DNA from: Fibrobacter sp.
Lineage (GTDB): Bacteria > Fibrobacterota > Fibrobacteria > Fibrobacterales > Fibrobacteraceae
Length of the DNA stretch: 64,000 nt
NCBI RefSeq assembly: GCF_045131395.1
Contig: NZ_JBGUQY010000024.1
Span: 86,069 to 150,068, forward strand
Direction: 5' to 3'
Shown here: one piece after another, positions 1,891-27,354 of the stretch
Position numbering within the stretch: position 1 is the first letter of the stretch
How the letters are laid out: each line of letters starts with the position of its first letter
Translations under genes and position numbers: made by a program
The notes under the pieces: generated by a model
The model's database searches: none
The model's input: the letters and a program-made list of their open reading frames with translations, nothing else
Told to the model about the DNA's origin: nothing

Positions 1891-1919
1891 AGATATTTCC
1901 TTAAAATCGTCCGTAAAAT

Positions 1920-2639: not shown

Positions 2640-2640
2640 C

Positions 2641-3768: not shown

Positions 3769-3772
3769 GTCG

Positions 3773-9824: not shown

Positions 9825-10958
9825 TCAAAAGCAGACGTTCATTTGTAGAACTTGCTCAATCACAGGAGCCATATCAAAATACTTATACAGACCTAGACGT
9901 CCACCAAAAATGACATCTGTTTCTTGATTAGCCAATTTACGATACTCCTCCGCCAAAGCATTATTGCGGTCGTCATTTACAGGATAGTACGGTTCCAACC
10001 CATCTTTATATTCTGTTGAATATTCTTCTGAAATTACTGTCTTGGGACAATCATAAACAGCCTGCCCAAACATTTCAAAATGCTTATGTTCAATAACACG
10101 AGTATAAGGCTGGTCATGCGACGTATAGTTTACAACAGCGTTTCCTTGGTAATTCGGGGTATTTTCGATGCGCGTTTTAAAGCTCACCGTGCGCCATTCA
10201 AGTTTTCCGAGCTTAAAGTCAAAATATTCATCAATGGCACCGGTATAGACAAGCTTATCCGCAACATTACGCCAATTGTCCTTATATTCTGCGAAGAAAT
10301 CCACACCCGTACGGGTTTCAACACCATTTAGCAGACCATTAATAAGCTTGTTATATCCACCAATAGGAATTCCCTGATAACGATCATTGAAATAATTGTT
10401 ATCAAAGACTAATCGCACCGGGAGGCGCTTGATAATGAATGCTGGAAGGTCCTTACAGTTTCGGCCCCATTGTTTCTCTGTGTATTCCTTAATGAGTCTC
10501 TCGAAGATATCCTTACCGACTAGCGTCAACGCCTGTTCCTCAAGATTAGCTGGCTCACATCCATTTAATGCAGCCACCGCATCCGCCTTCTGTTCTTCAA
10601 TTTTTGCCAAGGCTTCTGTCGGAGTAGTCACCCCCCACATCTGGTAGAACGTATTCATATTAAACGGCAGGTTATAAAGTTTTCCCTTATAATTTGCCAC
10701 AGGGCTATTAGTATATCGGTTGAATTCCACAATGGAATTCACGAAGTCCCATACTTGCTTATTATTGGTATGGAAAATATGTGCACCATACTTGTGAACG
10801 TTAATGCCTTCTACATTTTCGCAATATACATTACCACCGAGTTGTGGGCGTTTGTCTATAACCAAGCATTTTTTTCCAGCACAATTAGCGCAATATGCAA
10901 ATGTGGCTCCAAAAAGGCCCGAGCCGACAATGAGGTAATCATAATGAACAGGTTTCAT
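9825..10958 (-). CDS. glf: UDP-galactopyranose mutase
   Basis: YDYLIVGSGLFGATFA...DKRPQLGGNVY...HKYGAHIFHTNNKQVWDFVN. Typical Glf length (377 aa). Confidence 0.9.
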   Translation of the reverse strand: MKPVHYDYLIVGSGLFGATFAYCANCAGKKCLVIDKRPQLGGNVYCENVEGINVHKYGAHIFHTNNKQVWDFVNSIVEFNRYTNSPVANYKGKLYNLPFNMNTFYQMWGVTTPTEALAKIEEQKADAVAALNGCEPANLEEQALTLVGKDIFERLIKEYTEKQWGRNCKDLPAFIIKRLPVRLVFDNNYFNDRYQGIPIGGYNKLINGLLNGVETRTGVDFFAEYKDNWRNVADKLVYTGAIDEYFDFKLGKLEWRTVSFKTRIENTPNYQGNAVVNYTSHDQPYTRVIEHKHFEMFGQAVYDCPKTVISEEYSTEYKDGLEPYYPVNDDRNNALAEEYRKLANQETDVIFGGRLGLYKYFDMAPVIEQVLQMNVCF

Positions 10959-10981
10959 TTTTAAGTCCTTTCAGAATTCGT

Positions 10982-12118
10982 TTAATTAGAATCAATTGAT
11001 TCAAAGATGACTCTATTAAAAGAATCAACACTATGTTCCTTGTAATAATTGTTTGAAACCGAAGGCAACTGTAGACATAAAGTTTTTTTTATTGATTCTG
11101 GCGTTATTTCATCAAGAACAATTCCCAATGAATATTTTTTTATAATTTTCCCAATCATTGCAAATGCGGGGCCAATCACAGGCTTCTTAAAAAAGGACGC
11201 ATATCCAACGACTCCACTGCTTTGTGCTGCACTTTTATAAGGAATCATTATTGCATCACAAGAAAGACACAAATTATTTAAAAACTCATAAGAGCAAAAT
11301 TCATCAAAAACCTTAATTCGACTATAATTTTTATTATTCTTCAATACTTCGTAAAAATCTTCGCGCATCTTTGAGTTTACTTTACCCGCAAAAATGAAAA
11401 ATTTATTCTGAGCAATTTTTTCAGGAAGCATATTAATCGCTTTCAACAATTCTATCGTACCCTTTCTATAATCCATAGCCCCAAAATGCAAATAAACAAT
11501 ATCATCACTATTTATAGGAAATTCATTTCGAATCAAAGACAATTTACTTTTATCTATATCGGGAACTGGGTCAGGTAAATATTTAAATTTTCTTGATTTA
11601 AATTTTTCGTTCAGTAATAAAGTCATTTCTGAATCATTTAATATATAAATCCGTTCAACATTAAAATGCTTGGAAATAATTGCATATCTAAGATTTTCAA
11701 GAACCAAGCGAAGACCTCGAAATTTCACCTTATTGTACAAATAGATACTATAAACAATACCACTTACCAAAACCCCTTTAGGCAAAAAAAATGGTAAAAA
11801 GGGCATAAGCTCCATAAACATAACCAACCATACACGATCAATCTGAAACTCTTTAACATATTTACGTATTACAAAAGACATTCTCCAAGCACTTTTAAGT
11901 AGTTTTTGATCTTCGGAAATTTTCTGTTCTTCATCATTTAAAAAAACAAATTTGATATTATTTGTTTTTTCCCAATGAAACTTATCTTTCACCTGATCAA
12001 AGTCTTTATTCACCAAGAAAAAAAATTCATTTGAATTCAAGCAAGCTTCAGAATACCAATGATGCAGATATTCTAGATGATGACCTACAACTTTATTGTC
12101 ATAAATAAGAATTTTCAT
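10982..12118 (-). CDS. glycosyltransferase (GT-B, family 4-like)
   Basis: C-terminal GT1/GT4-like region (FIFAGKV...IMIPYKSAAQSSGVVGYASFFKKPVIG). ATG at 12118 (MKILIYD). Confidence 0.65.
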   Translation of the reverse strand: MKILIYDNKVVGHHLEYLHHWYSEACLNSNEFFFLVNKDFDQVKDKFHWEKTNNIKFVFLNDEEQKISEDQKLLKSAWRMSFVIRKYVKEFQIDRVWLVMFMELMPFLPFFLPKGVLVSGIVYSIYLYNKVKFRGLRLVLENLRYAIISKHFNVERIYILNDSEMTLLLNEKFKSRKFKYLPDPVPDIDKSKLSLIRNEFPINSDDIVYLHFGAMDYRKGTIELLKAINMLPEKIAQNKFFIFAGKVNSKMREDFYEVLKNNKNYSRIKVFDEFCSYEFLNNLCLSCDAIMIPYKSAAQSSGVVGYASFFKKPVIGPAFAMIGKIIKKYSLGIVLDEITPESIKKTLCLQLPSVSNNYYKEHSVDSFNRVIFESIDSN

Positions 12119-12135
12119 ACACACTTCTCTTGAAA

Positions 12136-12639
12136 TTACAGTTTCTCTTCAGATGAACTTGTTTTAAGAATCCTATTAAAGCCAACAACAGTCATATTAT
12201 CAGGAACATTTTTGGTAACAACGCTATTAGCGCCAATCCTCACATTATCGCCAATTACGATATCTCCCAATATTTTTGCACCAGCACCAATATAAACATG
12301 ATTACCAATTTGAGGAGCATTCATAGGATTGCATTTATGCTCATTTGCACCAATTGTCACCTGCTGAAATATAGTGCAATATTCACCCAACGATGCATTT
12401 TCATGAATAAAAATTCCGTTTAAATGAGGCATTCTAGCCCCCCCCCCAATGGCCCCAGTTTCTATTCCGATACCTCTAGCCTTCCAAATGAGAGAAATTG
12501 CTATTTTTGCTATGATTTTTAAAATAGACAATCCCGATGAATATTTTGTACGATAGCACCATAAATAAGCAACAGTTGTCTTATTGTTTCTATTACATAT
12601 TTTATCCAATTTAAACCTTTTACATTGAACTGAATTCAT
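12136..12639 (-). CDS. hexapeptide-repeat O-acetyltransferase (LbH)
   Basis: Hexapeptide repeats: IGANEH..APQIGNHVYIGAGAKILGDIVIGDNVRIGANSVVTKNVP. ATG at 12639 preceded by GGAGG. Contains an in-frame G10 tract. Confidence 0.7.
   Translation of the reverse strand: MNSVQCKRFKLDKICNRNNKTTVAYLWCYRTKYSSGLSILKIIAKIAISLIWKARGIGIETGAIGGGARMPHLNGIFIHENASLGEYCTIFQQVTIGANEHKCNPMNAPQIGNHVYIGAGAKILGDIVIGDNVRIGANSVVTKNVPDNMTVVGFNRILKTSSSEEKL
12438..12447 (-). repeat. homopolymeric G10 tract (C10 on plus strand) inside the acetyltransferase CDS, in frame
   Basis: Read directly: ...tctagCCCCCCCCCCaatgg... It encodes I-G-G-G-A in ORF 12136..12645. Confidence 0.95.
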
Positions 12640-12665
12640 ATTCAAGCCTCCAGAAAAGCGTTAGT

Positions 12666-12832
12666 TTATTTTTTAAATTTTGCTGGATATCCAGCCCATA
12701 TTTCATTGGCGGATATATTCTTGGCAACAACCAATCCAGCGCCATTAAACTTGAACAGGCTTACGAGCTCCAATGATGCAGATATTCCAAATTATGACCT
12801 ATAGCTCTATTATCATAAATGAGAATCTTCAT
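12666..12832 (-). pseudogene. gene remnants: glycosyltransferase 5' fragment fused to acetyltransferase 3' fragment
   Basis: 12832->12763 reads MKILIYDNRAIGHNLEYLHHWSS*, compared with MKILIYDNKVVGHHLEYLHHWY of the intact gene at 12118. 12746->12666 reads NGAGLVVAKNISANEIWAGYPAKFKK*, a typical LbH acetyltransferase C-terminus. Confidence 0.6.
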
Positions 12833-12940
12833 ATTCTAATGTCGCAAAAAATACATTAACAAAACTCTTATTTATTCAAAACATTCCTTTTTACATTTTT
12901 GTCTGCGTCTTAATATAGATGCAAACATACTATTCAACAA

Positions 12941-13990
12941 TTATATATGAACTATATCCTTTGAATTTTGAAAAAATATATCACGAATTTTGGTTCTTAT
13001 AAAGCTACGCAATTTCATCGGATTAACAAGATTCGGAATCCTCTTTATCAAGCCCTTCTGCTTCTTTTCAAATCCCGGATGTTTTAAAATAAGGACGTCA
13101 AGACCAAATAGTTTCTTAAGCATATTTTTCTTCTCATCAACTAATCGCAGATAACTAGGATACAAAGCATCAACTAATTTATCATCCACACGCCTGTTGT
13201 CTGGATACAGGTTGATTCTAACAATTTTTTTTTCAATATACTGAACATTTTCAAAATGGTAAAAAATTAAAGGCCAATTTTTTTTTCTACATTCAACAAC
13301 AATCTTATCATCAGGTTGTTTCTTGATGTATTTATATTGCGAAAAATTCCACGGAGCAACACCAGCCCCCAAAAGCTCCGTTTCAATACAATATGAATAA
13401 TCTTCACACCAATTATCTAAATATTTTTGATCTCCCCAATGAACACCATCATCTGCAGCAGAACAACATTCTAAACATTGTTGTCTCCAAATATCTACAA
13501 GTTTCAATCCGTTTTTATCATTTTTAAAAGCATTAAATTCAACACAATATTTACCAGAAATCCATTCACGTAATTTTCTTTCCGATTTGCAAAATCGATG
13601 ACCAACAACAAGAACAGATGCATTTTTTGCTTTCATTTCATCTATAAGGACTTGAGGGTCAGAATAAAAATACATGTCAGCATCAATATATGTACAATAT
13701 TCGGGTTTATAGGTCATTAGCACATATCGAATCAATGATGACGAACAAGTCCAGCAATATTCTCCAACTTTTCGAGTTGGCTTGACGCGGAGCAATTCTT
13801 CATCTTCGAAATCAACAAGTTTTATCGGCTTCATATGAGGATAATTTAAAGCTGTCAGAATTTCATAACACTTGTCACTCATTGCGAGTACATAAAGTTC
13901 AAATTCATCACAGACTTTTTCGAGAGACTCATACATAGCAAGCCCCTTATCCAAATAATTATGGTCGAATAGAGTGCAGAGTGTTATCAT
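12941..13990 (-). CDS. putative GT-A glycosyltransferase (DxD type, GT8-like)
   Basis: N-terminus ITLCTLFDHNYLDKGLAMYESL and a DxD-like YIDADMYF. No firm family call. Confidence 0.55.
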   Translation of the reverse strand: MITLCTLFDHNYLDKGLAMYESLEKVCDEFELYVLAMSDKCYEILTALNYPHMKPIKLVDFEDEELLRVKPTRKVGEYCWTCSSSLIRYVLMTYKPEYCTYIDADMYFYSDPQVLIDEMKAKNASVLVVGHRFCKSERKLREWISGKYCVEFNAFKNDKNGLKLVDIWRQQCLECCSAADDGVHWGDQKYLDNWCEDYSYCIETELLGAGVAPWNFSQYKYIKKQPDDKIVVECRKKNWPLIFYHFENVQYIEKKIVRINLYPDNRRVDDKLVDALYPSYLRLVDEKKNMLKKLFGLDVLILKHPGFEKKQKGLIKRIPNLVNPMKLRSFIRTKIRDIFFQNSKDIVHI

Positions 13991-14001
13991 AGCAAATTCC
14001 T

Positions 14002-15114
14002 TTATGCAAACGAATTAAGGGCTTCGACGACTTTTTTAGCCTGCTCTTGCGTTATGGCTTGGTTCATCGGGATCGAAAGTTCTTGTTCATGGATTCGTTC
14101 CGTAATGGGGAGCGTCAGTTGAGGCGTGTTCCAAGCTTCTGAGCTGTAACATTCCTGCTTGTGTGGCGGAATCGGGTAATGGATCAGCGTGCCGATGCCG
14201 CAATCGGTGAGGTGCTTTTGCAGGTCGTCGCGACGTTTGCAAAAAACGGGAAACTGGTGATAGACATTATTTTTATCCGGGATGCGCTCGGGGAGTGTAA
14301 TCAGCGGGTTCTTGATATTTTCGTAATAATAGTGTGCGAGCTTTTGACGCTTGGCGTTGTCTTCGTCGAGATATTTCAGCTTGACATCGAGCACGGCGGC
14401 ATCAAGTTCCGACATACGGCTGTTCATGCCGACATATTTGAACACGTATTTCTTTTGGCTTCCGTAGTTAGCGAGGGCACGGATGACTTTGGCAAGTTCC
14501 TCGTCGTTTGTCGTCACGGCACCGGCATCGCCGAAGGCACCAAGGTTTTTGCCCGGATAGAATGAATGTGCAGCCGCATCTCCTAGCGAACCTGTCTTTT
14601 GACCGTTCCATTCGCACCCATGGCTTTGGGCGCAATCTTCCATGAGTTTCAAGTTGTGCTTGCGACAGATTTCACCAAGTTTGTCGTTGTAGGCGACGCG
14701 CCCGTAAAGGTGGACGATCATGATGCCCTTTGTCTTGGGCGTGATGGCATCTTCGATTTTGTCGATGTCAATTTCAAGTTTTTCCCAAGTGGGTTCGACC
14801 AAGACCGGGACAAGATTGTTTCTCGTGATGCCTAAAATGGTGGCGATGTATGTGTTTGCGGGGACGATAATTTCGTCTCCATCGTGCAGGACGCCCATTT
14901 CTTTGTATGCCCGCATAACGAGGTACAGCGCGTCTAAACCGTTGGCAACAGAAATGCATTGGCTTGAGCCTATATACTTGGCGTAATCAGCTTCGAATTG
15001 GGCGATTTCCTTGCCTTGTAAAAACCAGCCGGAATCAATGACGCGATTTGCAGCAGCTTTGTATTCGTCACCATGCTGCATCGTGACAGCTTGAAGATCA
15101 AGAAGTTTTACCAT
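14002..15114 (-). CDS. DegT/DnrJ/EryC1-family sugar aminotransferase (FdtB/QdtB-like)
   Basis: Typical DegT layout ([27 protein letters not shown]). It sits in the same locus as the FdtA-type isomerase gene (16160..17062), separated from it by the acyltransferase gene at 15149..16176. Confidence 0.85.
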
Positions 15115-15148
15115 ATAATTAGTCCTTTATTAGTTTAATAATTACCCG

Positions 15149-16176
15149 TTAAATCTGTCCTATAATAAATTTGAGATGTTTTGTATTAATCAAAAAGGCC
15201 AATATAAGACAGCTCATTACAGTTAACAAAAATGTTACAATAGCAGTTCCAAAACAGTACATCCAATCATTGTCATATATACGGAATACGCTTAAAAGAT
15301 TGCGTAAAATAAATATATGGAATAAGTAAACGACAATTGAATTTTTCCCAATATATTCAAGAACATTATTAATTTTGATTAGCTTGCTTAACGTAATGAT
15401 AGCAAGAGTTCCCAAAAATGAAAAATATAGATACAGTGGAATATCAGCAAAGGAAACCTTAAAACCATAATTTAGAACAGGAATTCTTATATTGAAAACA
15501 TTGAACACAATGAATGTCAAAATCAACAAAAATATTGAACAACACTCAAAAATGGATATAGGTAATTTTCCTAATCTTTTTTCTTTTGAAAAAATTTTGT
15601 CTTTTGCAAGTAATCCTGCAACCAAAAAAATAGACATCGCTAATGCGTGTTGATGACACCATATATTGTATATGTTAAAATCATGTAAAAGAAAGCCTAT
15701 AACCATAGCCCCCCCCCTGCAATTAACTTAAGTTTTGTCGGTTTGCAGTACCGATTCACAGTCCAACATATTAAACGAGATAAAAAAAGCGAGGTAAGAA
15801 ACCAGTCGTTCCCTAACAACAGAAATCTTTTTATTGGAATAAAAAATAACTTTAATGAAAAACCTTCATGTATTAGTGAAACTATATCTAAAAAACTATG
15901 TATTGCAATAGCAGGGAGAATAATAGTTTTAAAGGATGTTTTTAGAAAAACAATGAAGGGTTTATTAAAGTTGCTGCATAAGCCCGTTGCAATAAAAAAA
16001 GAAGCCATAAACCAACAGCAATAATACCATTTCAAATCATCATACGAAATCCAAAAATCATTGCTAAATCCTTGAGATATTGCGTTTTGAGGGATATGAT
16101 GAAAAACTACTAACAATATTAGCAGTCCCTTCATTATATCAACCCAATGGATTCTTTCTTTATTTTGTTCGGACAT
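15149..16176 (-). pseudogene. acyltransferase-3 family membrane O-acyltransferase, split by a frameshift at a G9 tract (possible phase-OFF state)
   Basis: ORFs 15697..16275 and 15149..15706 are both polytopic and together match the acyltransferase_3 length (~342 aa from the ATG at 16176). The upstream frame ends ..IAGGGLWL*. One extra G gives ..AGGGAMVIGFLLHD, which continues into the downstream ORF. Confidence 0.75.
15709..15717 (-). repeat. homopolymeric G9 tract (C9 on plus strand) at the frameshift point
   Basis: Read directly: ...aaccatagCCCCCCCCCtgcaatt... Confidence 0.95.
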
Positions 16177-17062
16177 ATTTCTTAAAGTCATCATAATTTC
16201 GAATATAATCGTCTTCAGAATATCCATGAGACGCAAGTACCAGACAAATGGATCCCGAAGAAAAGCCTTGTTCACTAGCCCAAATTCCTGGAGGGACGTG
16301 TAGGCCCCAGAATGGTCTGTTCAATTGGACTGTGCGTTTATTTGTGCCGTCGTCCAAGACAACTTCGAACGCACCGGATGCTGCGATGATGAACTGGTGA
16401 CACTCCTTATGAGCATGAGCTCCACGATCTTCGCCACCGGGAATATCATAGGAATAAAAAACGCGATTTATCGGAAATGGCAAATGCACGTTCTCATACA
16501 TAAAGGTCAAGTTTCCTTCAGGATCGTGCATTTTATTCAATTCACAAAGAGAACAATCAAAAACACTGTGGCCTTCTGTAAGCATGTGTTGATTCAATGG
16601 TTTAATGGCATGAACAGAAGTCTTTGAATCAGGAGAATAAGTTTGCTTGTTTGAATTTTTTCGCCATTGCTTGAATTCCTCATAATTCATGATGTAATCA
16701 TTTTCATCATATTCTGTAGAAGATAACACCAACGCTAGGGAATTTGTAGAAAAATTCGTCATAGTGCGCCACATCCCCTTGGGGACATGAAGACCAAAGT
16801 AAGAACGATTGAGCGGAAATGTTCGCTTATTCACGCCATCGTCCAAAATCACATCAAAGGATCCAGAAAGAGCGACAATAAATTCCTCGTTTTCTTTATA
16901 GGCGTGCGCGCCACGATCTTTACCACCAGGGACATCATAAATCCAATAAGCCCTTTTTATTTCGAAAGGAATTTGCTTATTCTGTTCAATAATAGAGAGA
17001 TTGCCTCTCGGATCTTCAATTTTGGGAAGCCCCAAAATTTGAGCATCATATACTGTAGCCAT
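16160..17062 (-). CDS. tandem double FdtA/WxcM-type cupin (dTDP-4-oxo-6-deoxyglucose 3,4-oxoisomerase-like)
   Basis: Two ~135-aa copies of the FdtA fold. Copy 1: PKIEDPRGNLSIIE...DRGAHAYKENEEFIVALSGSF..DDG. Copy 2: HDPEGNLTFMYE...DRGAHAHKECHQFIIAASGAF..DDG. Confidence 0.8.
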   Translation of the reverse strand: MATVYDAQILGLPKIEDPRGNLSIIEQNKQIPFEIKRAYWIYDVPGGKDRGAHAYKENEEFIVALSGSFDVILDDGVNKRTFPLNRSYFGLHVPKGMWRTMTNFSTNSLALVLSSTEYDENDYIMNYEEFKQWRKNSNKQTYSPDSKTSVHAIKPLNQHMLTEGHSVFDCSLCELNKMHDPEGNLTFMYENVHLPFPINRVFYSYDIPGGEDRGAHAHKECHQFIIAASGAFEVVLDDGTNKRTVQLNRPFWGLHVPPGIWASEQGFSSGSICLVLASHGYSEDDYIRNYDDFKKYVRTK

Positions 17063-17065
17063 GGA

Positions 17066-18568
17066 TTATTCCTCTTTGTCAGTCATTTCATTGTAATTTT
17101 TAATGGCCTGTTCGTATTTGTCTTTAAAAGCCTGCGTATTTACTGATTTCAGCAGATTGCTTATTTCGTCAATGGATTCGCAGTGCGGGAATCCTAATTT
17201 TGTCATATCTTCAAAATAATTTCGATGCCCGGTCACATTGCATGAACAGAAAATAATACCTTTGAAGCCGGCATCAATCATAGATACAGAATGTTCTCCA
17301 AAAACAACATCAACATCTTTAAGGTCATCCTCAAAAGAACTTCTTTTGTATGAGAGCACAAATTGTCCATTCTGCATTGTATTGGGCATATTTCCAGACA
17401 ATTTTAGATTGGGTAAATTTAAATAGTCAAAATATGTTGCAGCTCGATTTATGGAATTGACCCCCTGATGTTGAGGATGAACCCATACTGGATGACAGCG
17501 ATAGACAAATTCAATATCGGGAAACATCGCTGCGACTTTTCCAAAAAGCCACATCATCATATCCTCGTCACTTCGGTTTTTTATTGCAGTCCAATCCCCA
17601 GCACCGCTTGCGACGCACAAAACTTTTTTGACTTTTGACGGATATTTAGCTTCAGGCAAATATAATTTTTTTCGAACAGGCATCACACAGCTTTTCAATT
17701 CATGGTACTTGAATGTATTTTGTCCCATCACATCCCACGTATAGAATTCCGTTCCCGGACCAAAATAGTAAAGATACTTGCTAGGATAATTTGGCGGCAA
17801 ATACCCATCCTGAATTTTTTTCGTATTAAAATTAGGATGGTCAGGCAGATTCCAATGAGAATCCTCATGCAACGAAGTCATACGAATCGTTTTATTTTTG
17901 GGCATAAAGTTAAACAACCTAATGCTATAGAATTCTGCGACATACTTCAAATTTTCTAATTTAGACGTTTTCATCCATCTCAAATCAATGCGATATCCGA
18001 TTCTGTTTAGGCTACCAAAAAAAAGATACTTTATACCATTTGATTTTGATTTCCAAATATCAGACTTAAATATTCCCTTAACAAAATTCAATTGACTTCT
18101 TATTATACCAAATACGCGGTTCAGCCTTGATTTTGGGCAGGGACAGCAGTCCGCAACATGGTAATAACGACATTCCGACTTAACAAAACCGTTCTGCAAC
18201 CAAATAGAGTCTTCTATTCCTAAATCATCACAAACAAGGATTCTATTGGAGCAAGGGTATTGCGCCAACAAGTTTTTAATGATTCGTTCATTCTTTAATT
18301 CCTTAATTTTCGCATAATAAGCACCCAAATTATGAGGAGGAGGAACAAAAGCCTCTTCATCACATTTTTGGCGTTCAGCATCCGACAAAAGTTTTGCAAA
18401 ATTTATATAATTGCACTTTATACCAAGCGCTTTATCGATTATTTCAGTTTCATTTTCAAAAACGAACTGCGTAGAAACGATTAGCGTTTCTTTACCAACT
18501 AAAAGAGACCTTAATGCAGATAGAGATTCTAAAACAACATTTTGTGTAATAACAATAATATTATCCAT
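17066..18568 (-). CDS. hypothetical 500-aa protein, function unknown (possible phospho- or glycosyl-transferase by context)
   Basis: Long clean ORF whose start overlaps the stop of the upstream TagD-like gene by 8 nt. No motif recognised. Confidence 0.5.
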   Translation of the reverse strand: MDNIIVITQNVVLESLSALRSLLVGKETLIVSTQFVFENETEIIDKALGIKCNYINFAKLLSDAERQKCDEEAFVPPPHNLGAYYAKIKELKNERIIKNLLAQYPCSNRILVCDDLGIEDSIWLQNGFVKSECRYYHVADCCPCPKSRLNRVFGIIRSQLNFVKGIFKSDIWKSKSNGIKYLFFGSLNRIGYRIDLRWMKTSKLENLKYVAEFYSIRLFNFMPKNKTIRMTSLHEDSHWNLPDHPNFNTKKIQDGYLPPNYPSKYLYYFGPGTEFYTWDVMGQNTFKYHELKSCVMPVRKKLYLPEAKYPSKVKKVLCVASGAGDWTAIKNRSDEDMMMWLFGKVAAMFPDIEFVYRCHPVWVHPQHQGVNSINRAATYFDYLNLPNLKLSGNMPNTMQNGQFVLSYKRSSFEDDLKDVDVVFGEHSVSMIDAGFKGIIFCSCNVTGHRNYFEDMTKLGFPHCESIDEISNLLKSVNTQAFKDKYEQAIKNYNEMTDKEE

Positions 18569-18968
18569 GGATTTTTTCCCTCAACATAGAAGAACTAATG
18601 CCTTCCGTATGGGACAAATACTCAATTTTAGCACCATACTTCGCAAACTCTTCTTCGTATTTTTTGTATAGTTCCGTTCCCTTCCATTCATCACCATGAA
18701 ACATCACATCAAAATGGCGTTTTTTCAAAAAAATCAGTTTGTCCATCGTTGTCTGCGGAACAACTTCATCAACATACTTTATTGCCTCAACTATTGCAGC
18801 ACGCTGTTCATATGGAATAATCGGTATCTTGTGTTTGTAGGACTCTACACATTCATCAGTCGAGACGCCAACAATAAGATAATCGCAATGTTCCTTTGCT
18901 CTCTGCAATATGTTAAGATGACCGATATGGAACATATCGAACACGCCAGTAGTGTATCCTATAATCAT
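18561..18968 (-). CDS. glycerol-3-phosphate cytidylyltransferase-like (TagD/HIGH family)
   Basis: IGYTTGVFDMFHIGHLNILQRAKEHCDYLIVGVSTDE in a 135-aa protein. Confidence 0.8.
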   Translation of the reverse strand: MIIGYTTGVFDMFHIGHLNILQRAKEHCDYLIVGVSTDECVESYKHKIPIIPYEQRAAIVEAIKYVDEVVPQTTMDKLIFLKKRHFDVMFHGDEWKGTELYKKYEEEFAKYGAKIEYLSHTEGISSSMLREKIHG

Positions 18969-20143
18969 GCTCTCACCCTTTTTAATTGTCTAACAATAAA
19001 GTTCGGAACCATCCGACGAACAATTGTACGAATTTTATTTTTTAGATAAATTAAATCAAACAACTGGACACTTCTCTTTAAACCTACTAAAAGAAAAAGA
19101 ATGTTCAAAAAATCATATTGAAATGGCTTTGGAGTCGGGAATTTTAAAGTATCATTCCCTGCGACCGCTTCTGCAAGGGATCTTTCTTGCAGCACAATCT
19201 TATTTTTTATCAAGGACAACATCTCTTGTCCTTTTTCTGTATGAAGTAGCACCAAATTGACACCTTGCCTATGCAAATCATACTGTTCTACAATCTGTTT
19301 ATCTAACCCCCAAAAATCAGCCAGAGTCAAATCTCCAATTCGTTCACACTTCGCATAAGCACAAGAAAGGCAAGACGCTCGATACATTGTGTGTCTCATA
19401 AAGCTGAAAAAATATGGATCAACATATTGTCCCGACTTGTAAACAAGCTCTTTATTATCATTCCATAAGCAGAAATTACAATCGTAATCACCACCACGAA
19501 AAGTGATATCGCTAAAAGCCAAGCCCTTTCTTTGAAACGAAGCTATATGGTCTTGGAGCAGCTTCGGAGATGCCGCTCCATGACACAACAAATCACAAAT
19601 AAATAAGTTGTTTGTAAAATTTTCCGTAAATTTCTTTATAGCAGCGCATTGACAAGGCACGCCAACAAACAAAACCTTCTTGTCGTTTTTCAGTAAATCA
19701 AATATTGCTTTATAAGCATCTTTTGCAAAATAATTGTGAACATACTTTGATTTTCTTATTTTTTCCAATTCATTAACATCATTTGTAACGATCGTTGTGG
19801 CTCGTAAATCTTTATCCCATGCACAGCCTGCGACATATCCACCATGGGCAATAAACGTCTTCGCCAAAGTTGTTGCAATCCCCCCGGAAGCACTTTCAAA
19901 ATGATCATAATCATCCTTACTCCATGCAGCAAAACACGCTTCACTTGAATTTAGTACTAACGGAGCATTAACAGGACAACTTCTTTGGCACAAATTGCAG
20001 TCTACACATTTCTTTTGGTCAATAACAGGACGATAATGCAGTCCAACAAGTTCCAAACTAATAGCTGATTTAGGGCATTTAGCAGCACACAAACCGCATC
20101 CAGTACATTTATCTTCACTGCATATATTTTTCATAAAGCTCAT
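18965..20143 (-). CDS. 2x[4Fe-4S] ferredoxin domain / coenzyme F420 hydrogenase beta (FrhB)-like protein
   Basis: CTGCGLCAAKCP and CVDCNLCQRSCP clusters followed by an FrhB-like region. This family is common in polysaccharide loci. Confidence 0.65.
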   Translation of the reverse strand: MSFMKNICSEDKCTGCGLCAAKCPKSAISLELVGLHYRPVIDQKKCVDCNLCQRSCPVNAPLVLNSSEACFAAWSKDDYDHFESASGGIATTLAKTFIAHGGYVAGCAWDKDLRATTIVTNDVNELEKIRKSKYVHNYFAKDAYKAIFDLLKNDKKVLFVGVPCQCAAIKKFTENFTNNLFICDLLCHGAASPKLLQDHIASFQRKGLAFSDITFRGGDYDCNFCLWNDNKELVYKSGQYVDPYFFSFMRHTMYRASCLSCAYAKCERIGDLTLADFWGLDKQIVEQYDLHRQGVNLVLLHTEKGQEMLSLIKNKIVLQERSLAEAVAGNDTLKFPTPKPFQYDFLNILFLLVGLKRSVQLFDLIYLKNKIRTIVRRMVPNFIVRQLKRVRA

Positions 20144-20145
20144 CC

Positions 20146-21678
20146 TTACACACAAATTTGTTCACGAATTTTCGCAACAACAAGCGAACGCTCTTTGGAA
20201 TCTAATCCCAGTGCATATACAGCAAAAGCAACAGACAACACTGAAATTAATGAGCACACAATAAATCGCAACCATCCTATTTCCAACATTTGATGAAGCA
20301 CCAATGGTAAAACTATCGACACAACTACGACTATAAAAACTTTAAACAAAACCTTTTGTATATAAAGACCGACAGGCAAATTAATCTGACGATGAAGGAC
20401 AAACAATCTTGCACCAACACCAATGCAGGTCAAAATAAAAATACATAAAAAAACTGATTCAGGAATGTTTGTCAACTTTATTGCAAAATAGGTTATAATC
20501 ATAAATATGTATGATAAGCCGCATACATAAATTTGATATAATTTTAACTTTCCTGAAGCCAAATTTGCAGTGAACATAGGATTTATAAAAGCATCCAATA
20601 TCGACGTACACAATATAAATCGAATAAAATTAACTGTATGTGCAGGTACTGACCCGACACCTAACCATAGATTCAAAATAAATTCAGCTTCAATCATAAT
20701 AGGAAGCGACAACAGAAAGAGAAGATAAAAGCAATAACGTGAGCTAGCAAATACTAACGAAAAAGTCCTATTAATTTCCCCTGACGCATAAGATTTTATA
20801 ATTTGCGGATTAATGGCAGTTTGAACATTGTTTGCAAATTGTTTCACAACCCCTTCTACTTGGACCGCGACCCCTCTTGCTGCATTAACAACAGGTCCAC
20901 AGAATACATTTAAAAGAATGTTTACGCCCTGTGAATAGAAAACATAAGAAAAATTACCAAACATGCCCCATCCTGCAAACGAAAGAATTTCCTTAAACAA
21001 GGGCTTATTCCAAATGCGACGAAGCTTTGTTTCGGCAAAACGTTTTTTGCAATAGGCGAAGTAAATACAGAGGTCAAGAAACCCAACAAGCGAAAGCAAG
21101 CCCCCATAAGCAATCAGGCGGTCTGCCGTAACCCATTGCAGCGACAGGACTATGCCGAGTTTTAGAAACACGTCCATGATGGAGATATAGGCAAAGGCAG
21201 ACATTTTTTCATGCGCAATGACGCACGCGTTGTAGGGCACGTATAGAATATTGAAAAAAGTTGTCGCTATGGAGAACTGGAGCAGCCAAAAGCATGCCTG
21301 CATCCTATCTGGCGGAATTTGCATTTTGCTGTGCAAAAACCACAATCCGACAGTCTCACCCAAAAAGACAATGACGATTCCCAAAACCAAATGAACAACA
21401 GATGCCATATTGAATACGGTATTCAATACGCCATCGTCTTTTTTCCCGAGGTAGAACGTAATAAACCTTGTTGTCGCATTTATCATGGCGCCATTGATGA
21501 AGGTGAACATGGTAACGATTCCGCCGACAACATTATACAAGCCGTAATCGATGACCCCAAGCGTCTGGAGAACAACGCGTGACGTGTATAACCCGACAAC
21601 CATTGTGATGAACATGCGGATGTACATCAACAAAGTGTTTACAGCAATGCGTTTGTTGTTCTGGGAGTAGGTAGGCAT
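20146..21678 (-). CDS. wzx: Wzx-type polysaccharide flippase (MOP superfamily)
   Basis: 510-aa polytopic membrane protein with a typical Wzx N-terminus (NTLLMYIRMFITMVVGLYTSRVVLQTLG). Confidence 0.75.
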   Translation of the reverse strand: MPTYSQNNKRIAVNTLLMYIRMFITMVVGLYTSRVVLQTLGVIDYGLYNVVGGIVTMFTFINGAMINATTRFITFYLGKKDDGVLNTVFNMASVVHLVLGIVIVFLGETVGLWFLHSKMQIPPDRMQACFWLLQFSIATTFFNILYVPYNACVIAHEKMSAFAYISIMDVFLKLGIVLSLQWVTADRLIAYGGLLSLVGFLDLCIYFAYCKKRFAETKLRRIWNKPLFKEILSFAGWGMFGNFSYVFYSQGVNILLNVFCGPVVNAARGVAVQVEGVVKQFANNVQTAINPQIIKSYASGEINRTFSLVFASSRYCFYLLFLLSLPIMIEAEFILNLWLGVGSVPAHTVNFIRFILCTSILDAFINPMFTANLASGKLKLYQIYVCGLSYIFMIITYFAIKLTNIPESVFLCIFILTCIGVGARLFVLHRQINLPVGLYIQKVLFKVFIVVVVSIVLPLVLHQMLEIGWLRFIVCSLISVLSVAFAVYALGLDSKERSLVVAKIREQICV

Positions 21679-21683
21679 ATTGT

Positions 21684-22076
21684 CTAACTTAATATATCCG
21701 TTTCGGTTAATGGTGCGTATGGACCTTCCTTAACTTCTAAAATGACCGTTTGAGTAGCGAAAACTTCGACTCCATGCCAAACTCCTTTGGGGATGTGCAC
21801 GCCGAAGTTTTCCGAACCTGATTCAAGTAAAAAAGATTCCATTTCTTTTTTATTTGAATCAAAATAACTTACGGACAATTTTCCCTTTATAACGATTATC
21901 GTTTCAGCGGCGTTCTGATGACGATGAACAGGAATTTTTGTTCCTGGTTCCATAGCATTAAATAATCTTTGAACCGAATCGTTTGAGTCTTCGTGCAAGT
22001 TGAAGTTTGTACGAAGACGAGGCGATTCTTTTGCTTTCGTAGAAAGATCATTCAGCATTTTTTCAGTCAACAGCAT
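21684..22076 (-). CDS. WbuC-family cupin protein
   Basis: 130 aa with ESPRLRTNFNLH...IPVHRH...VWHGVEV, which is WbuC-like. Adjacent to gmd. Confidence 0.65.
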   Translation of the reverse strand: MLLTEKMLNDLSTKAKESPRLRTNFNLHEDSNDSVQRLFNAMEPGTKIPVHRHQNAAETIIVIKGKLSVSYFDSNKKEMESFLLESGSENFGVHIPKGVWHGVEVFATQTVILEVKEGPYAPLTETDILS

Positions 22077-22088
22077 TAAGGGGGGTCC

Positions 22089-23186
22089 TTACTTCACCAG
22101 CCCCTTTTCAAGGTATTCGGCGAGGTTAGTGCGGGTAACGCTAGCAACGTGATCGGCGGCAACCTTCTGCATATCGTGGTGAACCATAATCTGCACCAGC
22201 TGTTCGAATGTCGTTGTTTGTGGGTTCCAGCCAAGTTCCTTTTTGGCCTTGGTCGGATCTCCCCAGAGGTTCACCACGTCGGTCGGACGGTAGAAATCTT
22301 CGGAGACGGCAACAACGGTCTTGCCTGTTGCAATATCAACACCCTTCTCGTTCACGCCTTCGCCTTCCCAGCGGAGTTCGATGCCAGCATGGTGGAATGC
22401 GAGTGTCGCAAATTCCCGGACGGTGTGCTGCACGCCCGTGGCGATTACGAAGTCTTCGGGCTTGTCATGCTGCAGAATGAGCCACATACATTCCACGTAA
22501 TCCTTGGCATAACCCCAGTCGCGAAGACTGTCCAGATTGCCGAGGTACAGGCAATCCTGCTTGCCCTGGGCGATACGTGCAGCAGCAAGCGTAATCTTGC
22601 GGGTCACGAAAGTCTCACCACGGCGTTCGGATTCGTGGTTAAAAAGAATGCCGGAGCAGCAGAACATGTTGTACGCTTCGCGGTATTCCTTAATAATCCA
22701 GAAGCCATAGAGCTTTGCCACAGCATACGGGCTATACGGGTGGAACGGGGTTTTCTCGTTCTGCGGAACTTCTTCAACCTTACCGTAAAGTTCACTGGTT
22801 GACGCCTGGTAAATGCGGCAAGTCTTTTCGAGGTGGTTGGTACGAACAGCTTCCAACACGCGAAGGACACCAGTAGCATCAACATCAGCGGTAAATTCTG
22901 GAGAATCGAAGGAAACCTGCACATGGCTCTGTGCGGCGAGGTTGTAAATTTCAGTCGGCTGAACCTTGCCAACAACCTTCACGAGGCTCATGGAGTCGCC
23001 CATATCGGCGTAGTGCAAGTGGAAATTCGGTGTTCCCTCGAGATGGGCTATACGTTCGCGGTAATCCACCGAAGAACGACGGATAATGCCGTGAACCTCG
23101 TAACCTTTGGCAAGAAGGAATTCGGAGAGATAGGAGCCGTCTTGGCCCGTGACGCCAGTGATAAGAGCAACGTTACGCTTTGTCAT
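22089..23186 (-). CDS. gmd: GDP-mannose 4,6-dehydratase
   Basis: [33 protein letters not shown]...NLAAQSHV...YAVAKLY. Confidence 0.95.
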
Positions 23187-23196
23187 ATTGTTCCTT

Positions 23197-24378
23197 TTAT
23201 GCCTTTAGTGATTCCTTATACCAGTTGAAAAGTTTCTGTACGCCTTCGTCAATTTCGACCTTGTGAGTCCAGCCGAGACTGTGGAGTTTGCTCACGTCGA
23301 TGAGTTTGCGCGGTGTGCCATCAGGCTTGCTTGCGTCAAAGAACACTTCGCCTTCGAAGCCAACAGCCTTCACCACGAGTTCGCTGAGTTCACGGATAGT
23401 GAGTTCCTTGCCCGTACCCACGTTGATGTGGCAGTTACGAATTTCGCCAAGTTTCGGGATTGCTCCGCCACGGCCAGCGCTATGATTGCGGTCTACTGCA
23501 CCATCGACACTTGTACCATAATGTACGCTGGAGTACTTCTCGATGCCGATAATGTCGCTGAAGTTCACGTTCAAGAGCACATGCACAGAGGCATCCGCCA
23601 TGTCTTCGCTCCAAAGGAACTCGCGGAGCGGCTTGCCGGTACCCCAGAGAGTCACTTTGTTGTTCTCGATACCATACTTGGCGAGAACCTTCAGAATCTC
23701 ATCCTGCGAGGCGTTGCCATTGATGCCTTCGACCGGACGCTTGTCCATATCGACCTTGATGCTGTCCCAATCGTTGTCGTGGATAAGCTTCGCCAGATAC
23801 ACCTTGCGCATCATGGCGGGCATCACGTGGCTGTTTTCCAGGTGGAAGTTGTCGTTCGGACCGTAAAGGTTCGTGGGCATCACAGCGATGTAGTTGGTGC
23901 CATACTGCAGGTTGTAGCTTTCGCACATCTTGAGGCCCGCGATCTTTGCGATGGCGTATTCCTCGTTGGTATACTCAAGTTCGCTCGTGAGAAGGGCATC
24001 CTCCTTCATGGGCTGCGGAGCGTTCTTCGGGTAAATGCAGGTCGAACCAAGGAACAGGAACTTTTTCACGTTATGGGCGTAGGCTTCACTGAACACGTTG
24101 CACTGGATTTTCATGTTCATCATCATGAAGTCAGCACGATAGAGCGAGTTTGCCATAATGCCGCCGACGAAAGCCGCCGCAAGGACTACAGCATCGGGGC
24201 GTTCTTCGTCAAAAAACTTCTTGACGGCATACTGGTCCGTGAGGTCAAGTTCCTTATGAGTACGTCCGACGAGGTTATTGTACCCACGAGATTTAAGATT
24301 ATTCCAAATTGCAGAACCAACAAGTCCTTGGTGACCTGCAATGTATATTTTATCAGATAAACTAACATTTTTCGTCAT
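23197..24378 (-). CDS. fcl: GDP-L-fucose synthase (GDP-4-keto-6-deoxymannose epimerase/reductase), long form
   Basis: [14 protein letters not shown]...[10 protein letters not shown]...YAIAKIAG...[11 protein letters not shown]. At 393 aa it carries an insertion relative to the usual ~320 aa. Confidence 0.88.
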
Positions 24379-25421
24379 TATTGGAAAGCCTCAAAAACTG
24401 TTTTATATGGGACATACGGATTTTTTATTGGAGTATCATTAACAACGAGATTAATCACCAACATTAAAATATGAGACAAACAGAATATCCAATAAAAACC
24501 AATCTTATTTTTCACGACAGAATAAAAAAGAGGAACAGCAAAGCATACAAACATCATCATATAAATTGGCAATCGAAAAGCAATATGTCCAAGTCCACTA
24601 AAAATAATCGACATTAAAACACCCACAAATATTATATTAAGAAAGTAACTAAAATTTTCTGATTTCACTTTTTTTCTAATCATAAACAACGCGATGAAAA
24701 AGAATAAGAACATCAGCGATATTTTCGCCCCACCATCACCAACTTTATTACTTATATAATAGGCAAATTTTCCCCCAAAGCCAAGCATATAATCAATCAA
24801 AATGTATTTATAGCTCATTACCGCAATAATTATTCCCACATACATCTTTCTACTAAACAATTTATGGGGAATTAGGTTTATCAAAAAGAAAATAAAAGCT
24901 GAAGGATGAAATAAAGAAGCAGTCAATACAGATACCACATACCATACTTTTCTCTTATCAAATAAAAAAGTCAGAGCCACAAAACATATTGCAATAGCAC
25001 ACCATTGCCGAATAGTCGAATACGAGTCAAGAAAAAAATGTGGATACGCAAAACAACAAAGAAGAGATAATTCCGGTCTAGGAGAAATTTTAAAAAACGC
25101 ATATGCTAAGCATAATACAATTATAGACGACGTTATTATGAAGAACACATAGGGATTATGCATATAATTTGAAAAATCCAGTAATTTTTCTATCGCAAAG
25201 CCCATCCTTTCGTAATGAAAATCAAGCATTGCATAAGCTTCATAATTTTTTCCTCCCGCCAATGTAAAATACATTGGATAATCCCAACCAACATCAAAAC
25301 GAATAGCGGAAAAAACAAGAAGTATTATGCATCCCAAAATATAAAACCTCTTTTTCCCAGTCAAATAGAAAAAAAAGAAAACAAATGACAAAAAAAGAAA
25401 AAACAGTATCCAAAGCAGCAT
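24378..25421 (-). CDS. EpsG-family membrane protein (putative Wzy-like polymerase)
   Basis: Polytopic, with RFDVGWDYPMY near the N-terminus as in the EpsG family. Confidence 0.6.
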   Translation of the reverse strand: MLLWILFFLFLSFVFFFFYLTGKKRFYILGCIILLVFSAIRFDVGWDYPMYFTLAGGKNYEAYAMLDFHYERMGFAIEKLLDFSNYMHNPYVFFIITSSIIVLCLAYAFFKISPRPELSLLCCFAYPHFFLDSYSTIRQWCAIAICFVALTFLFDKRKVWYVVSVLTASLFHPSAFIFFLINLIPHKLFSRKMYVGIIIAVMSYKYILIDYMLGFGGKFAYYISNKVGDGGAKISLMFLFFFIALFMIRKKVKSENFSYFLNIIFVGVLMSIIFSGLGHIAFRLPIYMMMFVCFAVPLFYSVVKNKIGFYWIFCLSHILMLVINLVVNDTPIKNPYVPYKTVFEAFQ

Positions 25422-26590
25422 TATAAAAGAAATCCCTTTATTTTTTTCTCCGCATTTACAACATTTTTATACATCTCTGCAACAAAGGACAAAGCGTTTA
25501 TACGCAAACTTTCCCTAGTCGACTCTGATCTTAACAACCGGTCTATTACAAGAGCAAAGTCTTCGTAATCATCAGTTACAAAGAACGCTCTATTTTTCCC
25601 ACTTTCCAATCCTTGCGCACCAACAGATGTAGTAACAAGCGGTTTGCCATACATCAAAGCTTCGACACATTTTATTTTCAGACCTCCACCCATAAATATT
25701 GGATTGACAAAAATTTGATTATCTCGATATATTACTTCATTATTTTCAACAAAACCATGAGTGAATACATTTCTTTCTTTTTTTGCATAATTGGAAACGT
25801 TTCCATAAACATGAAATTCTGCTGTAGGATTTTTCATCAAAACAACAGGCCAAACTTTCGTAATAAACCAATCTACAGATTTTATATTAAAGTCAATAGC
25901 AGAACCAATAAAAGCGACACGATTGTTTCCTCCATCTAAAAAATCAGCAGATTTTGGCTTTAAAAGAGGAAAATACGGATATTCCATCACATTTTTTAAA
26001 TCTTTTGAAAACAAATCAAAATCACGACCGTTTATAGCCAAAACACAATCCGCTTTTTCTAAAGCCCTAATTTCTTCTTTTTTGGTTATTTGAAAATCAT
26101 AATTCAAGCCTATTTTTGCAAATGATTCGCACCGATCATATTGGACATCATGCGTGTCAACAACTTTCAATACATTTGAAGGAACAACATCAAACAAATA
26201 AGTAAGCCATACATACTCCACCCATAACACATCATATTGTTCCTCAAAACACTTTTTCTTTATAACACTCTCTAAATTCTTATCCATTCTCGTTTCAATC
26301 GACCCTGATTTACGAAGACGCTTCAAATAAGGCCGTAAAAAAGGAACATACTTCGTAACAATACTTTTAATATTATTTTTTATTTCCAATTTCCAACAAC
26401 GAATGTTATAAATATTTGAAAAAAATTTGCCTTCTAATCTTTCCCGATTTTTTCGAGAAATTTTTCCATTATAAAATAAAGAAACATCCGCATTATTGCG
26501 CAACATTTCCAAAATCTGCGAAATTCTCTGTTCATTTCCCGCAGATTTTTTCCAAAAGGGAACATCTGTCACAAAAGCAATTTTTTTCAT
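25421..26590 (-). CDS. glycosyltransferase family 4-like (GT-B)
   Basis: C-terminal FVNPIFMGGGLKIKCVEALMYGKPLVTT motif (E-x7-E region). ATG at 26590; the ORF-track start at 26599 is TTG. Confidence 0.7.
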   Translation of the reverse strand: MKKIAFVTDVPFWKKSAGNEQRISQILEMLRNNADVSLFYNGKISRKNRERLEGKFFSNIYNIRCWKLEIKNNIKSIVTKYVPFLRPYLKRLRKSGSIETRMDKNLESVIKKKCFEEQYDVLWVEYVWLTYLFDVVPSNVLKVVDTHDVQYDRCESFAKIGLNYDFQITKKEEIRALEKADCVLAINGRDFDLFSKDLKNVMEYPYFPLLKPKSADFLDGGNNRVAFIGSAIDFNIKSVDWFITKVWPVVLMKNPTAEFHVYGNVSNYAKKERNVFTHGFVENNEVIYRDNQIFVNPIFMGGGLKIKCVEALMYGKPLVTTSVGAQGLESGKNRAFFVTDDYEDFALVIDRLLRSESTRESLRINALSFVAEMYKNVVNAEKKIKGFLL

Positions 26591-26595
26591 TGGAC

Positions 26596-27354
26596 TCAAG
26601 AAGCCTTCTTACAGATTTTTCGCTTCAAAAAGTTAAAGCCCTTCACTATCCAATTCTGTTTTTCCATAAATATACAGGGCAATTCTTTGAACTTCACGTT
26701 CTTCGTTTCTATCCACACATCTAGCAAGCGTTCACTCACGAAACCAAACACACGCGCATCGTAATTGTTGTAGTTTGATATATCGAGTTGTGATTCCAGT
26801 TCGAACAATATCGAAAACATCCATTCGCAATAATCCCTAAACAGTTCTCGCGTCATAATAAACATATTAAAGCGATGGCCTATCGTACGCTTCATATAGG
26901 CATCATAGGCCGGAATATATTCAGGATACCTATTTGCAATAATTTCACGAGTTTTATCCAAATCAATCGCATGATGCGCATGCGCATACTGAGAATAATT
27001 TGTTTCTATAAAATAATTTCGAGGTTTGGGCAAAATCACGTCATAATTTTCAGTCAACGAAGACAACTGTTCCGATGTCAAAATTGACATCCACTTATCT
27101 GCACTTTTTTTCAGAGCAAAATGACGACGATAATGAACCAAGCCCAAATAATCGGCATCAAGGTGTTTCCAAGCCCAAAATAATCCAGTCAATTCACAAT
27201 AATGCTTATTTTTTGAACTAATATTTTCACCATTATTATCGCGAAGATACCCCAAAGAATCTTTACCCTCTGCACCAACTTGTACGGGAACATACATTGA
27301 ATCAGACGGCATTTGATAGGCCTTATGCGTAGCAACAATTATTTTGACGTTCAT
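26596..27354 (-). CDS. DUF4422-type glycosyltransferase
   Basis: IIVATHKAYQMPSD..YVPVQVGAEGK...CELTGLFWAWKH...YLGLVHYRRHF. ATG at 27354 overlaps the upstream stop. Confidence 0.7.
   Translation of the reverse strand: MNVKIIVATHKAYQMPSDSMYVPVQVGAEGKDSLGYLRDNNGENISSKNKHYCELTGLFWAWKHLDADYLGLVHYRRHFALKKSADKWMSILTSEQLSSLTENYDVILPKPRNYFIETNYSQYAHAHHAIDLDKTREIIANRYPEYIPAYDAYMKRTIGHRFNMFIMTRELFRDYCEWMFSILFELESQLDISNYNNYDARVFGFVSERLLDVWIETKNVKFKELPCIFMEKQNWIVKGFNFLKRKICKKAS

Follow-up and report, generated by a model that had tools for sequence, protein, structure and literature searches.

A G9 tract splits an accessory O-acyltransferase gene in a Fibrobacter surface-glycan locus and may act as a phase-variable switch

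Homopolymer contingency loci are textbook material for a small number of host-adapted pathogens, among them Campylobacter, Neisseria, Haemophilus and Helicobacter, where they are usually explained by immune evasion. Here we analyse 64,000 nucleotides (nt) of DNA from a member of Fibrobacter, a key cellulose degrader of the rumen (NCBI RefSeq assembly GCF_045131395.1, contig NZ_JBGUQY010000024.1, positions 86,069 to 150,068; hereafter the window), in which a surface-glycan biosynthesis locus contains a membrane O-acyltransferase gene of the AT3 (Acyl_transf_3) family that is split by a run of nine G. We consider it reasonably likely that this G9 tract is a slipped-strand ON/OFF switch of an accessory O-acyltransferase, whose gene was inserted into the locus between those of an FdtA-like isomerase and a DegT aminotransferase. 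That the gene is switchable is a well-supported inference, and switching at its tract is unproven. The mechanism itself is known; what is new is the host and its phylum, Fibrobacterota.

Among the described systems of this kind, that of Campylobacter jejuni operates in a bacterium lacking MutS/MutL mismatch repair. C. jejuni strain NCTC11168 carries 29 poly-G/C tracts of at least 7 nt, with contingency loci in capsule, lipooligosaccharide (LOS) and flagellar-glycan modification genes (PMC4965091). Shared with the window are intragenic G runs (8-11), a glycan locus of low guanine-plus-cytosine (GC) content, a one-base toggle between full-length and truncated enzyme, and the presence of several tracts in one locus, which in C. 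jejuni switch independently. C. jejuni is a host-associated pathogen, whereas the tracts described here belong to a rumen cellulolytic commensal of the Fibrobacterota, and number two in 64 kb.

Closer in enzyme family are two O-acetyltransferase genes of pathogens, of which pglI of Neisseria has a poly-G tract as its repeat. This gene counts among the phase-variable genes in neisserial phasome studies (PMC5953494), and its product is an AT3-SGNH O-acetyltransferase of the pilin glycan (PMC9558356). The window likewise has a poly-G tract within a predicted surface-glycan O-acetyltransferase gene; unlike PglI, with its fused SGNH domain, the repaired protein of 342 amino acids (aa) contains one Pfam domain and no fused SGNH domain, and both organism and glycan differ. 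The second gene, oafA of Haemophilus influenzae, encodes a phase-variable AT3-family LOS O-acetyltransferase (PMC10505976, PMC9558356), for which function, selection and the switching of ON and OFF variants have been reported experimentally (PMC10505976). Here, too, an AT3-family glycan O-acetyltransferase is paired with an intragenic repeat, the frame of oafA being switched by slipped-strand mispairing and ON and OFF alleles occurring in natural strains. The oafA repeat is a tetranucleotide (GCAA/AGCA), in contrast to the homopolymer and the short, AT3-only predicted enzyme of the window. A second tract of the window lies in a hexapeptide-repeat O-acetyltransferase gene, and its closest analogue is NeuO of Escherichia coli K1, a hexapeptide-repeat polysialic-acid O-acetyltransferase encoded by a prophage-borne gene and switched by heptanucleotide repeats. 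Both are capsule-type O-acetyltransferases of the left-handed beta-helix (LbH) class in which repeat number changes within the open reading frame (ORF); the NeuO repeat has a 7-nt unit near the 5' end, whereas the G run here codes three conserved glycines (Gly-Gly-Gly) midway along the protein.

The split AT3 gene lies on the minus strand at 15149..16176 and was delimited by a Pfam match (PF01757), collinear homologues and frame rebuilding. Its G9 tract (minus strand, 15709..15717; C9 on the plus strand) codes Gly154-156, and the reading across it is AAG TTA ATT GCA GGG GGG GGG CTA TGG TTA TAG. The N-terminal ORF of the G9 state (159 aa, minus strand, 15697..16176) reads ...KLKLIAGGGLWL and ends in AGGGLWL, followed by the stop TAG at 15699-15697, while the C-terminal ORF (185 aa, minus strand, 15149..15706) starts at an ATG (15706-15704) 2 nt past the tract, so that the two overlap by 10 nt. 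NCBI annotates the halves as two separate 'acyltransferase family proteins', the first as a 165-aa form (WP_405340579.1) and the second as WP_405340576.1. An earlier sequence-only reading had placed a C9 run exactly where two ORFs meet, and our check of the ORF ends agrees; its upstream ORF, given as 15697..16275, is right in the split and the stop and most likely wrong in the start, which the homologues (MSEQNKERIHW) place at ATG 16176 rather than at GTG 16275.

When the frame was rebuilt from ATG 16176 with 7 to 11 G, G10 gave an ORF of 342 aa, reading ..IAGGGAMVIGFLLHD.. across the junction, and G7 one of 341 aa; the G8, G9 and G11 versions all stop at about 160 codons. The same reading had predicted that a tenth G would join the halves into an acyltransferase_3-like protein of about 342 aa, as it does here. 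Apart from the frameshift the gene has no stop or indel, with 185 open codons past the shift in DNA of 30% GC, and it stays collinear with its homologues; the decay through extra stops that had been named as counting against a switch is absent. The gene has the form of a contingency locus, namely an unbroken homopolymer (of at least 7-8 nt) inside the reading frame, at which a one-base change toggles between full-length and truncated product, and 15709-15717 is a real frameshift in a tract prone to mutation.

The repaired protein looks like a complete member of its family. It matches PF01757 (IPR002656) with an E value of 2e-17 and 63.7 bits (cut-off 31) over residues 9-327, corresponding to profile positions 1-321 of 326, and it aligns collinearly from end to end, junction included, with homologues of 330-346 aa (330-352 aa among the homologues from the protein search). 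A crude Kyte-Doolittle scan gives ten hydrophobic segments, the fifth of which starts at Gly154-156 of the tract. [quoted passage not shown] The first motif is present as K16-X10-H27, with K16 and H27 invariant in a 10-sequence alignment; RXXR is absent, and the loop judged equivalent by eye has the sequence K79-T-S-F-K83, in which K83 is shared by 90% or more of the aligned proteins. All invariant columns of the homologue alignment are kept. A profile search of the PDB returned no solved relative. From family membership and position in a glycan locus, we infer that the protein would transfer an acyl group to the glycan.

The tract is also exceptional for its surroundings. GC content is 29.7% in the AT3 gene, 38.9% between 10 and 25 kb of the window and 52-57% in the flanking backbone. 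Under a first-order Markov model of the locus (9825-28352), 0.019 G/C runs of at least 9 are expected and two are seen (Poisson P ~1.7e-4), a roughly 100-fold excess, and the rest of the window has none despite its higher GC. Across the window, G/C runs number eight at length 6, none at 7 or 8, and one each at 9 and 10. That the surroundings are AT-rich and a 9-nt G run improbable there, as the sequence-only reading had it, is upheld by these figures. A/T runs of at least 9 are no commoner than chance predicts (2 against an expected 2.8), so there is no general excess of homopolymers; the A9/T9 runs of a neighbouring glycosyltransferase gene, considered as further switches, were rejected because their frequency is that of chance for the composition. 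Both G/C tracts carry the G on the sense strand, both lie in acyl- or acetyltransferase genes, and each consists of three consecutive GGG, the least used Gly codon of the locus (42/332).

The second of these runs, the only other G/C run of at least 7 in the 64 kb, is a G10 tract on the minus strand (12438..12447; C10 on the plus strand) 3.3 kb from the AT3 tract. It lies in frame in an intact, and hence ON, gene for a CysE/LacA-like hexapeptide-repeat O-acetyltransferase of 167 aa (minus strand, 12136..12639; WP_405340567.1), coding the GGG of an IGGGAR motif in the context ATT GGG GGG GGG GCT AGA ATG (IGGGARM). An ATG follows directly after both tracts. Searching for homologues of this protein returned many full-length matches of about 167 aa; 16 of the best 120 database clusters were fragments of 91-100 aa, all starting with MPHLNG, whose Met lies just past the tract.

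Homologous loci on genome and metagenome contigs compared with the window are labelled L001, L002 and so on; the useful hexapeptide alleles came from protein matches and their contigs, a pattern scan of metagenomes having given only 2 JGI matches. Neighbouring genes place L022, L036 and L038 in Fibrobacter. Across the Fibrobacter and rumen contigs, tracts of G7, G9 and G10 occur at the same codons, in four ON and five OFF alleles. The ON alleles are those of the window (G10 + CTAGA), of L022-26 from five samples (G10 + TTAGA), of L028 (G10 + CGAGA) and of L033 (G9 + CTTAGA). OFF are those of L027 (G9 + CGAGA), L029-31 (G7 + CTTAGG), L032 (G10 + ATTAGG), L034/35 (G9, where G8 or G11 would be needed) and L036/37 (G10 + CTTAGG). 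For L034/35 an in-frame tract with a separate upstream lesion was considered and rejected, since all-frame translation gives an N-terminal frame of ...NKIHWGGA* and so a G9 OFF state. Over 921 nt, L027 (OFF) and L028 (ON) share 98.8% identity, and the sole gap between them is one G of the tract. The gene was intact in each of the ten contigs recovered with a tract-less allele, in which the same glycines are coded GGT GGC GGT; in L038-L044 this allele adjoins a CotH gene. The window and L022 share a perfect G10 despite about 13% flanking divergence, with the bases next to it changed on both sides.

Judged from these alleles, the tract of the hexapeptide family behaves like a contingency tract that is maintained while its length varies. 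Both 'G9+CTT' and 'G10+CT' forms occur in the family, suggesting that indels beside the tract may be offset by tract slippage over evolutionary time. A second tract, in a gene family with length polymorphism and frequent tract-linked frameshifts, strengthens the idea of phase variation, and by analogy and co-location the AT3 tract is very likely prone to the same slippage. The claim that O-acylation of the glycan is switchable stands in part: the tract, the repair, the undecayed gene and the polymorphic second tract speak for it, and no variation has been seen at the AT3 tract itself.

The same observations bear on two ways in which the G9 allele could be functional as it stands. Runs of at least nine identical bases can provoke RNA polymerase slippage, mainly when they are A/T runs, and the sequence past the AT3 tract is perfectly preserved, as would be expected if transcriptional slippage or +1/-2 ribosomal frameshifting produced a leaky, constitutive full-length enzyme without any change of the DNA. 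We regard this as very unlikely: homologues encode the protein in one frame, the occurrence of both in-frame and out-of-frame lengths in the hexapeptide family fits switching at the DNA level, and no stimulating structure or conserved slippery heptamer was seen, in an analysis that included no search aimed at either. Still less credible is a genuinely split gene, in which the 159-aa and 185-aa halves are both made and assemble into an active enzyme, the G run serving as a Shine-Dalgarno-like element. The ATG beyond each tract and the overlap of the halves, compatible with translational coupling, are in keeping with such an arrangement; the break, however, falls inside predicted membrane segment 5, no homologue has a two-gene organisation, and the 2-nt spacing from run to ATG is short for a ribosome-binding site.

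Whether the AT3 frameshift is real could be judged from independent assemblies. A Logan contig of run SRR25030089 (18,778 nt) and one of the separate run SRR25030106 (4,208 nt) each match the window at 100% identity and have the same G9, so that OFF is the consensus wherever the allele has been found (three assemblies, two runs) and is no assembly artefact. Most sequencing platforms make errors in homopolymers of 9-10 nt, and a miscalled consensus would mean that the true genome has G10 and an intact gene. The agreement of the NCBI contig with both Logan contigs largely excludes this explanation, which the sequence-only reading had itself raised; the same data also call the G10 tract 3.3 kb away in frame, and the frameshifted homologous tracts of L029-31, L034/35 and L036/37 recur identically in independent samples and so are not random read errors. 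We therefore rate a sequencing error as highly improbable.

Several observations weigh against a switch at this tract. All three assemblies carry G9, so that no length variation of the AT3 tract is documented, in consensus sequences in which a minority of ON cells would not be visible. An exact look-up among 15 billion proteins found no ON version (the G10 or G7 product), and a variable-gap DNA pattern across the tract had 0 matches in the genome and metagenome contig collections. The nearest homologues, at 60% identity, carry an interrupted and stable GGGGGAGGG (codons GCA GGG GGA GGG CTT ATG), from which we conclude that Gly-Gly-Gly is ancestral and the unbroken run specific to the lineage of the window. 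Compared with them, the shift can equally be read as one T lost after the tract (GGG CTT ATG versus GGG CT ATG), so that the present GGGGGGGGG-CT-ATG could stem from G9+CTT minus a T and not from G10 minus a G. The literature searched contains no report of phase variation in Fibrobacter, and none of it mentions run SRR25030089. Comparing tract length among relatives, as had been proposed from the sequence, accordingly gave variation for the hexapeptide tract (G7/G9/G10) and none for the AT3 tract (G9 only, interrupted in the nearest homologues).

Two further searches define how sparse the relatives are. A protein search with the repaired AT3 sequence returned nothing above 60% identity; this word-indexed search also missed the 185-aa half of the window itself, although exactly that sequence represents a cluster in the collection searched, which makes its negatives less reliable. 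Scanning genome contigs with the AT3 alignment gave only relatives of at most 36% identity, in metagenome-assembled genomes (MAGs) of mostly rumen and gut Bacteroidales and of Lachnospiraceae, and none in the Fibrobacter species representatives.

These points lend themselves to a serious alternative, which we rate as possible but rather unlikely: the gene may have recently become a dead-end pseudogene, an accessory acyltransferase that came in by recombination, was killed by a single-base indel (a G slip or a T loss) and is now decaying, its tract being a mutational hazard that arose through a synonymous GGA>GGG change and not a selected switch. A precedent is wcjE of Streptococcus pneumoniae, an AT3 capsule O-acetyltransferase gene that various irreversible mutations have inactivated (serotype 11A to 11E). 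There, as here, an accessory AT3 gene of a capsule-type locus is frameshifted while the rest of the locus is intact; the wcjE lesions are heterogeneous and not repeat-mediated, and the gene is a model for such a loss and not for a switch. One substitution and one T loss suffice to derive the present sequence from the interrupted tract and CTT of the homologues, all three assemblies, drawn from two runs, have the same G9, none of the known copies is ON, and the gene is dispensable, being absent from L022, L003 and L004. Yet a second lesion is found nowhere in 342 codons of 30%-GC sequence, a G9 run can still revert frequently, however the shift came about, the family of the co-resident G10 tract shows clear ON/OFF polymorphism, and two runs of at least 9 in one locus are very unlikely by chance.

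The G9 state yields only a 159-aa fragment with 4 of about ten membrane segments, presumably inactive. If the AT3 tract is a slipped-strand switch, as we favour, mispairing during replication would change the length of the G run, and one G gained or two lost (G10 or G7) would restore the complete enzyme and with it O-acylation. A few cells of any population would then be ON, with the glycan gaining and losing its O-acyl decoration stochastically and reversibly. With the hexapeptide O-acetyltransferase (G10, now ON) switching independently, up to four acylation states per locus would be possible. Phages and predators that recognise the surface glycan may be the selective agents in the rumen, which is speculative. 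Like some pathogens, the Fibrobacter of the window thus probably turns decorations of its surface sugars on and off.

Both genes belong to a low-GC, Wzy-type surface-glycan biosynthesis locus, recognised by domain content (9825..28352, all genes on the minus strand and in operon-like arrangement), with genes for a UDP-galactopyranose mutase, GT1 enzymes, an EpsG-type polymerase, a DUF4422 protein, a GDP-mannose dehydratase, an FdtA-like isomerase and a DegT aminotransferase. Upstream of the AT3 gene is a tandem FdtA/WxcM-like ketoisomerase gene (300 aa, minus strand, 16160..17062), whose 3' end runs 17 nt into the AT3 gene, an overlap also present in L001 and L002; downstream is a DegT/FdtB-type sugar aminotransferase gene (370 aa, minus strand, 14002..15114). 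The ketoisomerase consists of two cupin isomerase domains in tandem, in place of the usual single domain or acetyltransferase-isomerase fusion, a form also found in L001-L004 and L022. The AT3 gene is carried by a segment of 1,051 nt (minus strand, 15117..16167) that is missing from L022, L003 and L004: the Fibrobacter locus L022 is collinear with the window at 86% nucleotide identity over about 13 kb and lacks exactly this segment, and in L003 and L004 the DegT gene follows directly after FdtA. Such collinear relatives mark the AT3 gene as an accessory tailoring cassette, and its composition and distant relatives fit horizontal acquisition of low-GC DNA.

Other features of the region point to a mosaic history or to further decorations. 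The genes for GDP-mannose 4,6-dehydratase and for the epimerase/reductase next to it (22089-24378) have 50-53% GC within a locus of 30-40%, which indicates a mosaic composition. The gap of about 300 nt at 12640-12945, between a 349-aa glycosyltransferase gene and the hexapeptide gene, holds a GT1-like 5' end (MKILIYDNRAIGHNLEYLHH), about 81% identical to the start of the L022 GT1 gene, followed in another frame by the C-terminus of an LbH acetyltransferase (..NGAGLVVAKNISANEIWAGYPAKFKK*); these relics look like a recombination scar. Adjoining the locus is a 2-aminoethylphosphonate biosynthesis cluster (775-5083, minus strand) with genes for a phosphoenolpyruvate (PEP) mutase-cytidylyltransferase fusion, a phosphonopyruvate-decarboxylase-like thiamine-pyrophosphate (TPP) enzyme, a nucleotidyltransferase and a class-V aminotransferase, suggesting that the glycan is decorated with phosphonate. 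Three CotH-kinase-family genes lie on the plus strand on both flanks of the locus (6852-8519, 8538-9821 and 28611-29930). A 136-aa ORF at 5156-5566 matches only positions 1-114 of the 252 in the profile of the RhuM virulence protein; this truncated gene of the mobile-element type marks the edge of the low-GC region.

G tracts were also seen in other glycan genes. In L020, a locus of 27.6% GC from an uncultured Prevotella sp. MAG, a distant AT3 homologue (29% identity) has an in-frame G10 (10302-10311) coding RGGGD at about codon 100; its position differs from that of the window tract, which argues for independent origins of poly-G within the AT3 family. L034 (MAG GCA_963629515.1, contig CAVGIN010000050.1) has three G tracts of at least 9 within 8 kb, near the 5' end of a GT2 gene (356-365), at the start of a GT8 gene or close to it (1143-1151) and in its OFF hexapeptide acetyltransferase gene (5986-5994), the gene calls around the first two being fragmented. 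On the contig of the OFF allele of L027, a LicD-family gene has an in-frame G9 (665-673) around codon 36. These hints from L034, L027 and Prevotella lead us to propose, tentatively, that Fibrobacter and perhaps rumen Bacteroidales could possess a multi-gene poly-G 'phasome' in glycan tailoring genes (AT3 and hexapeptide acyltransferases, LicD, glycosyltransferases), driven by phages and grazing. If true, this would mean combinatorial glycan variation in a non-pathogenic fibre degrader of free-living style, with phages and protozoal grazing and not adaptive immunity as the drivers.

Rumen metagenomes hold natural ON/OFF polymorphism for the sister hexapeptide acetyltransferase, and annotation routinely records genes of this kind as pseudogenes or as two fragments, here WP_405340579.1 and WP_405340576.1, with the consequence that rumen studies based on MAGs underestimate both the capacity for glycan modification and the heterogeneity of strains. 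Should the AT3 tract prove to be a switch, the contingency-locus strategy would extend to another phylum and to an ecology in which phages and protozoa are the likely drivers.

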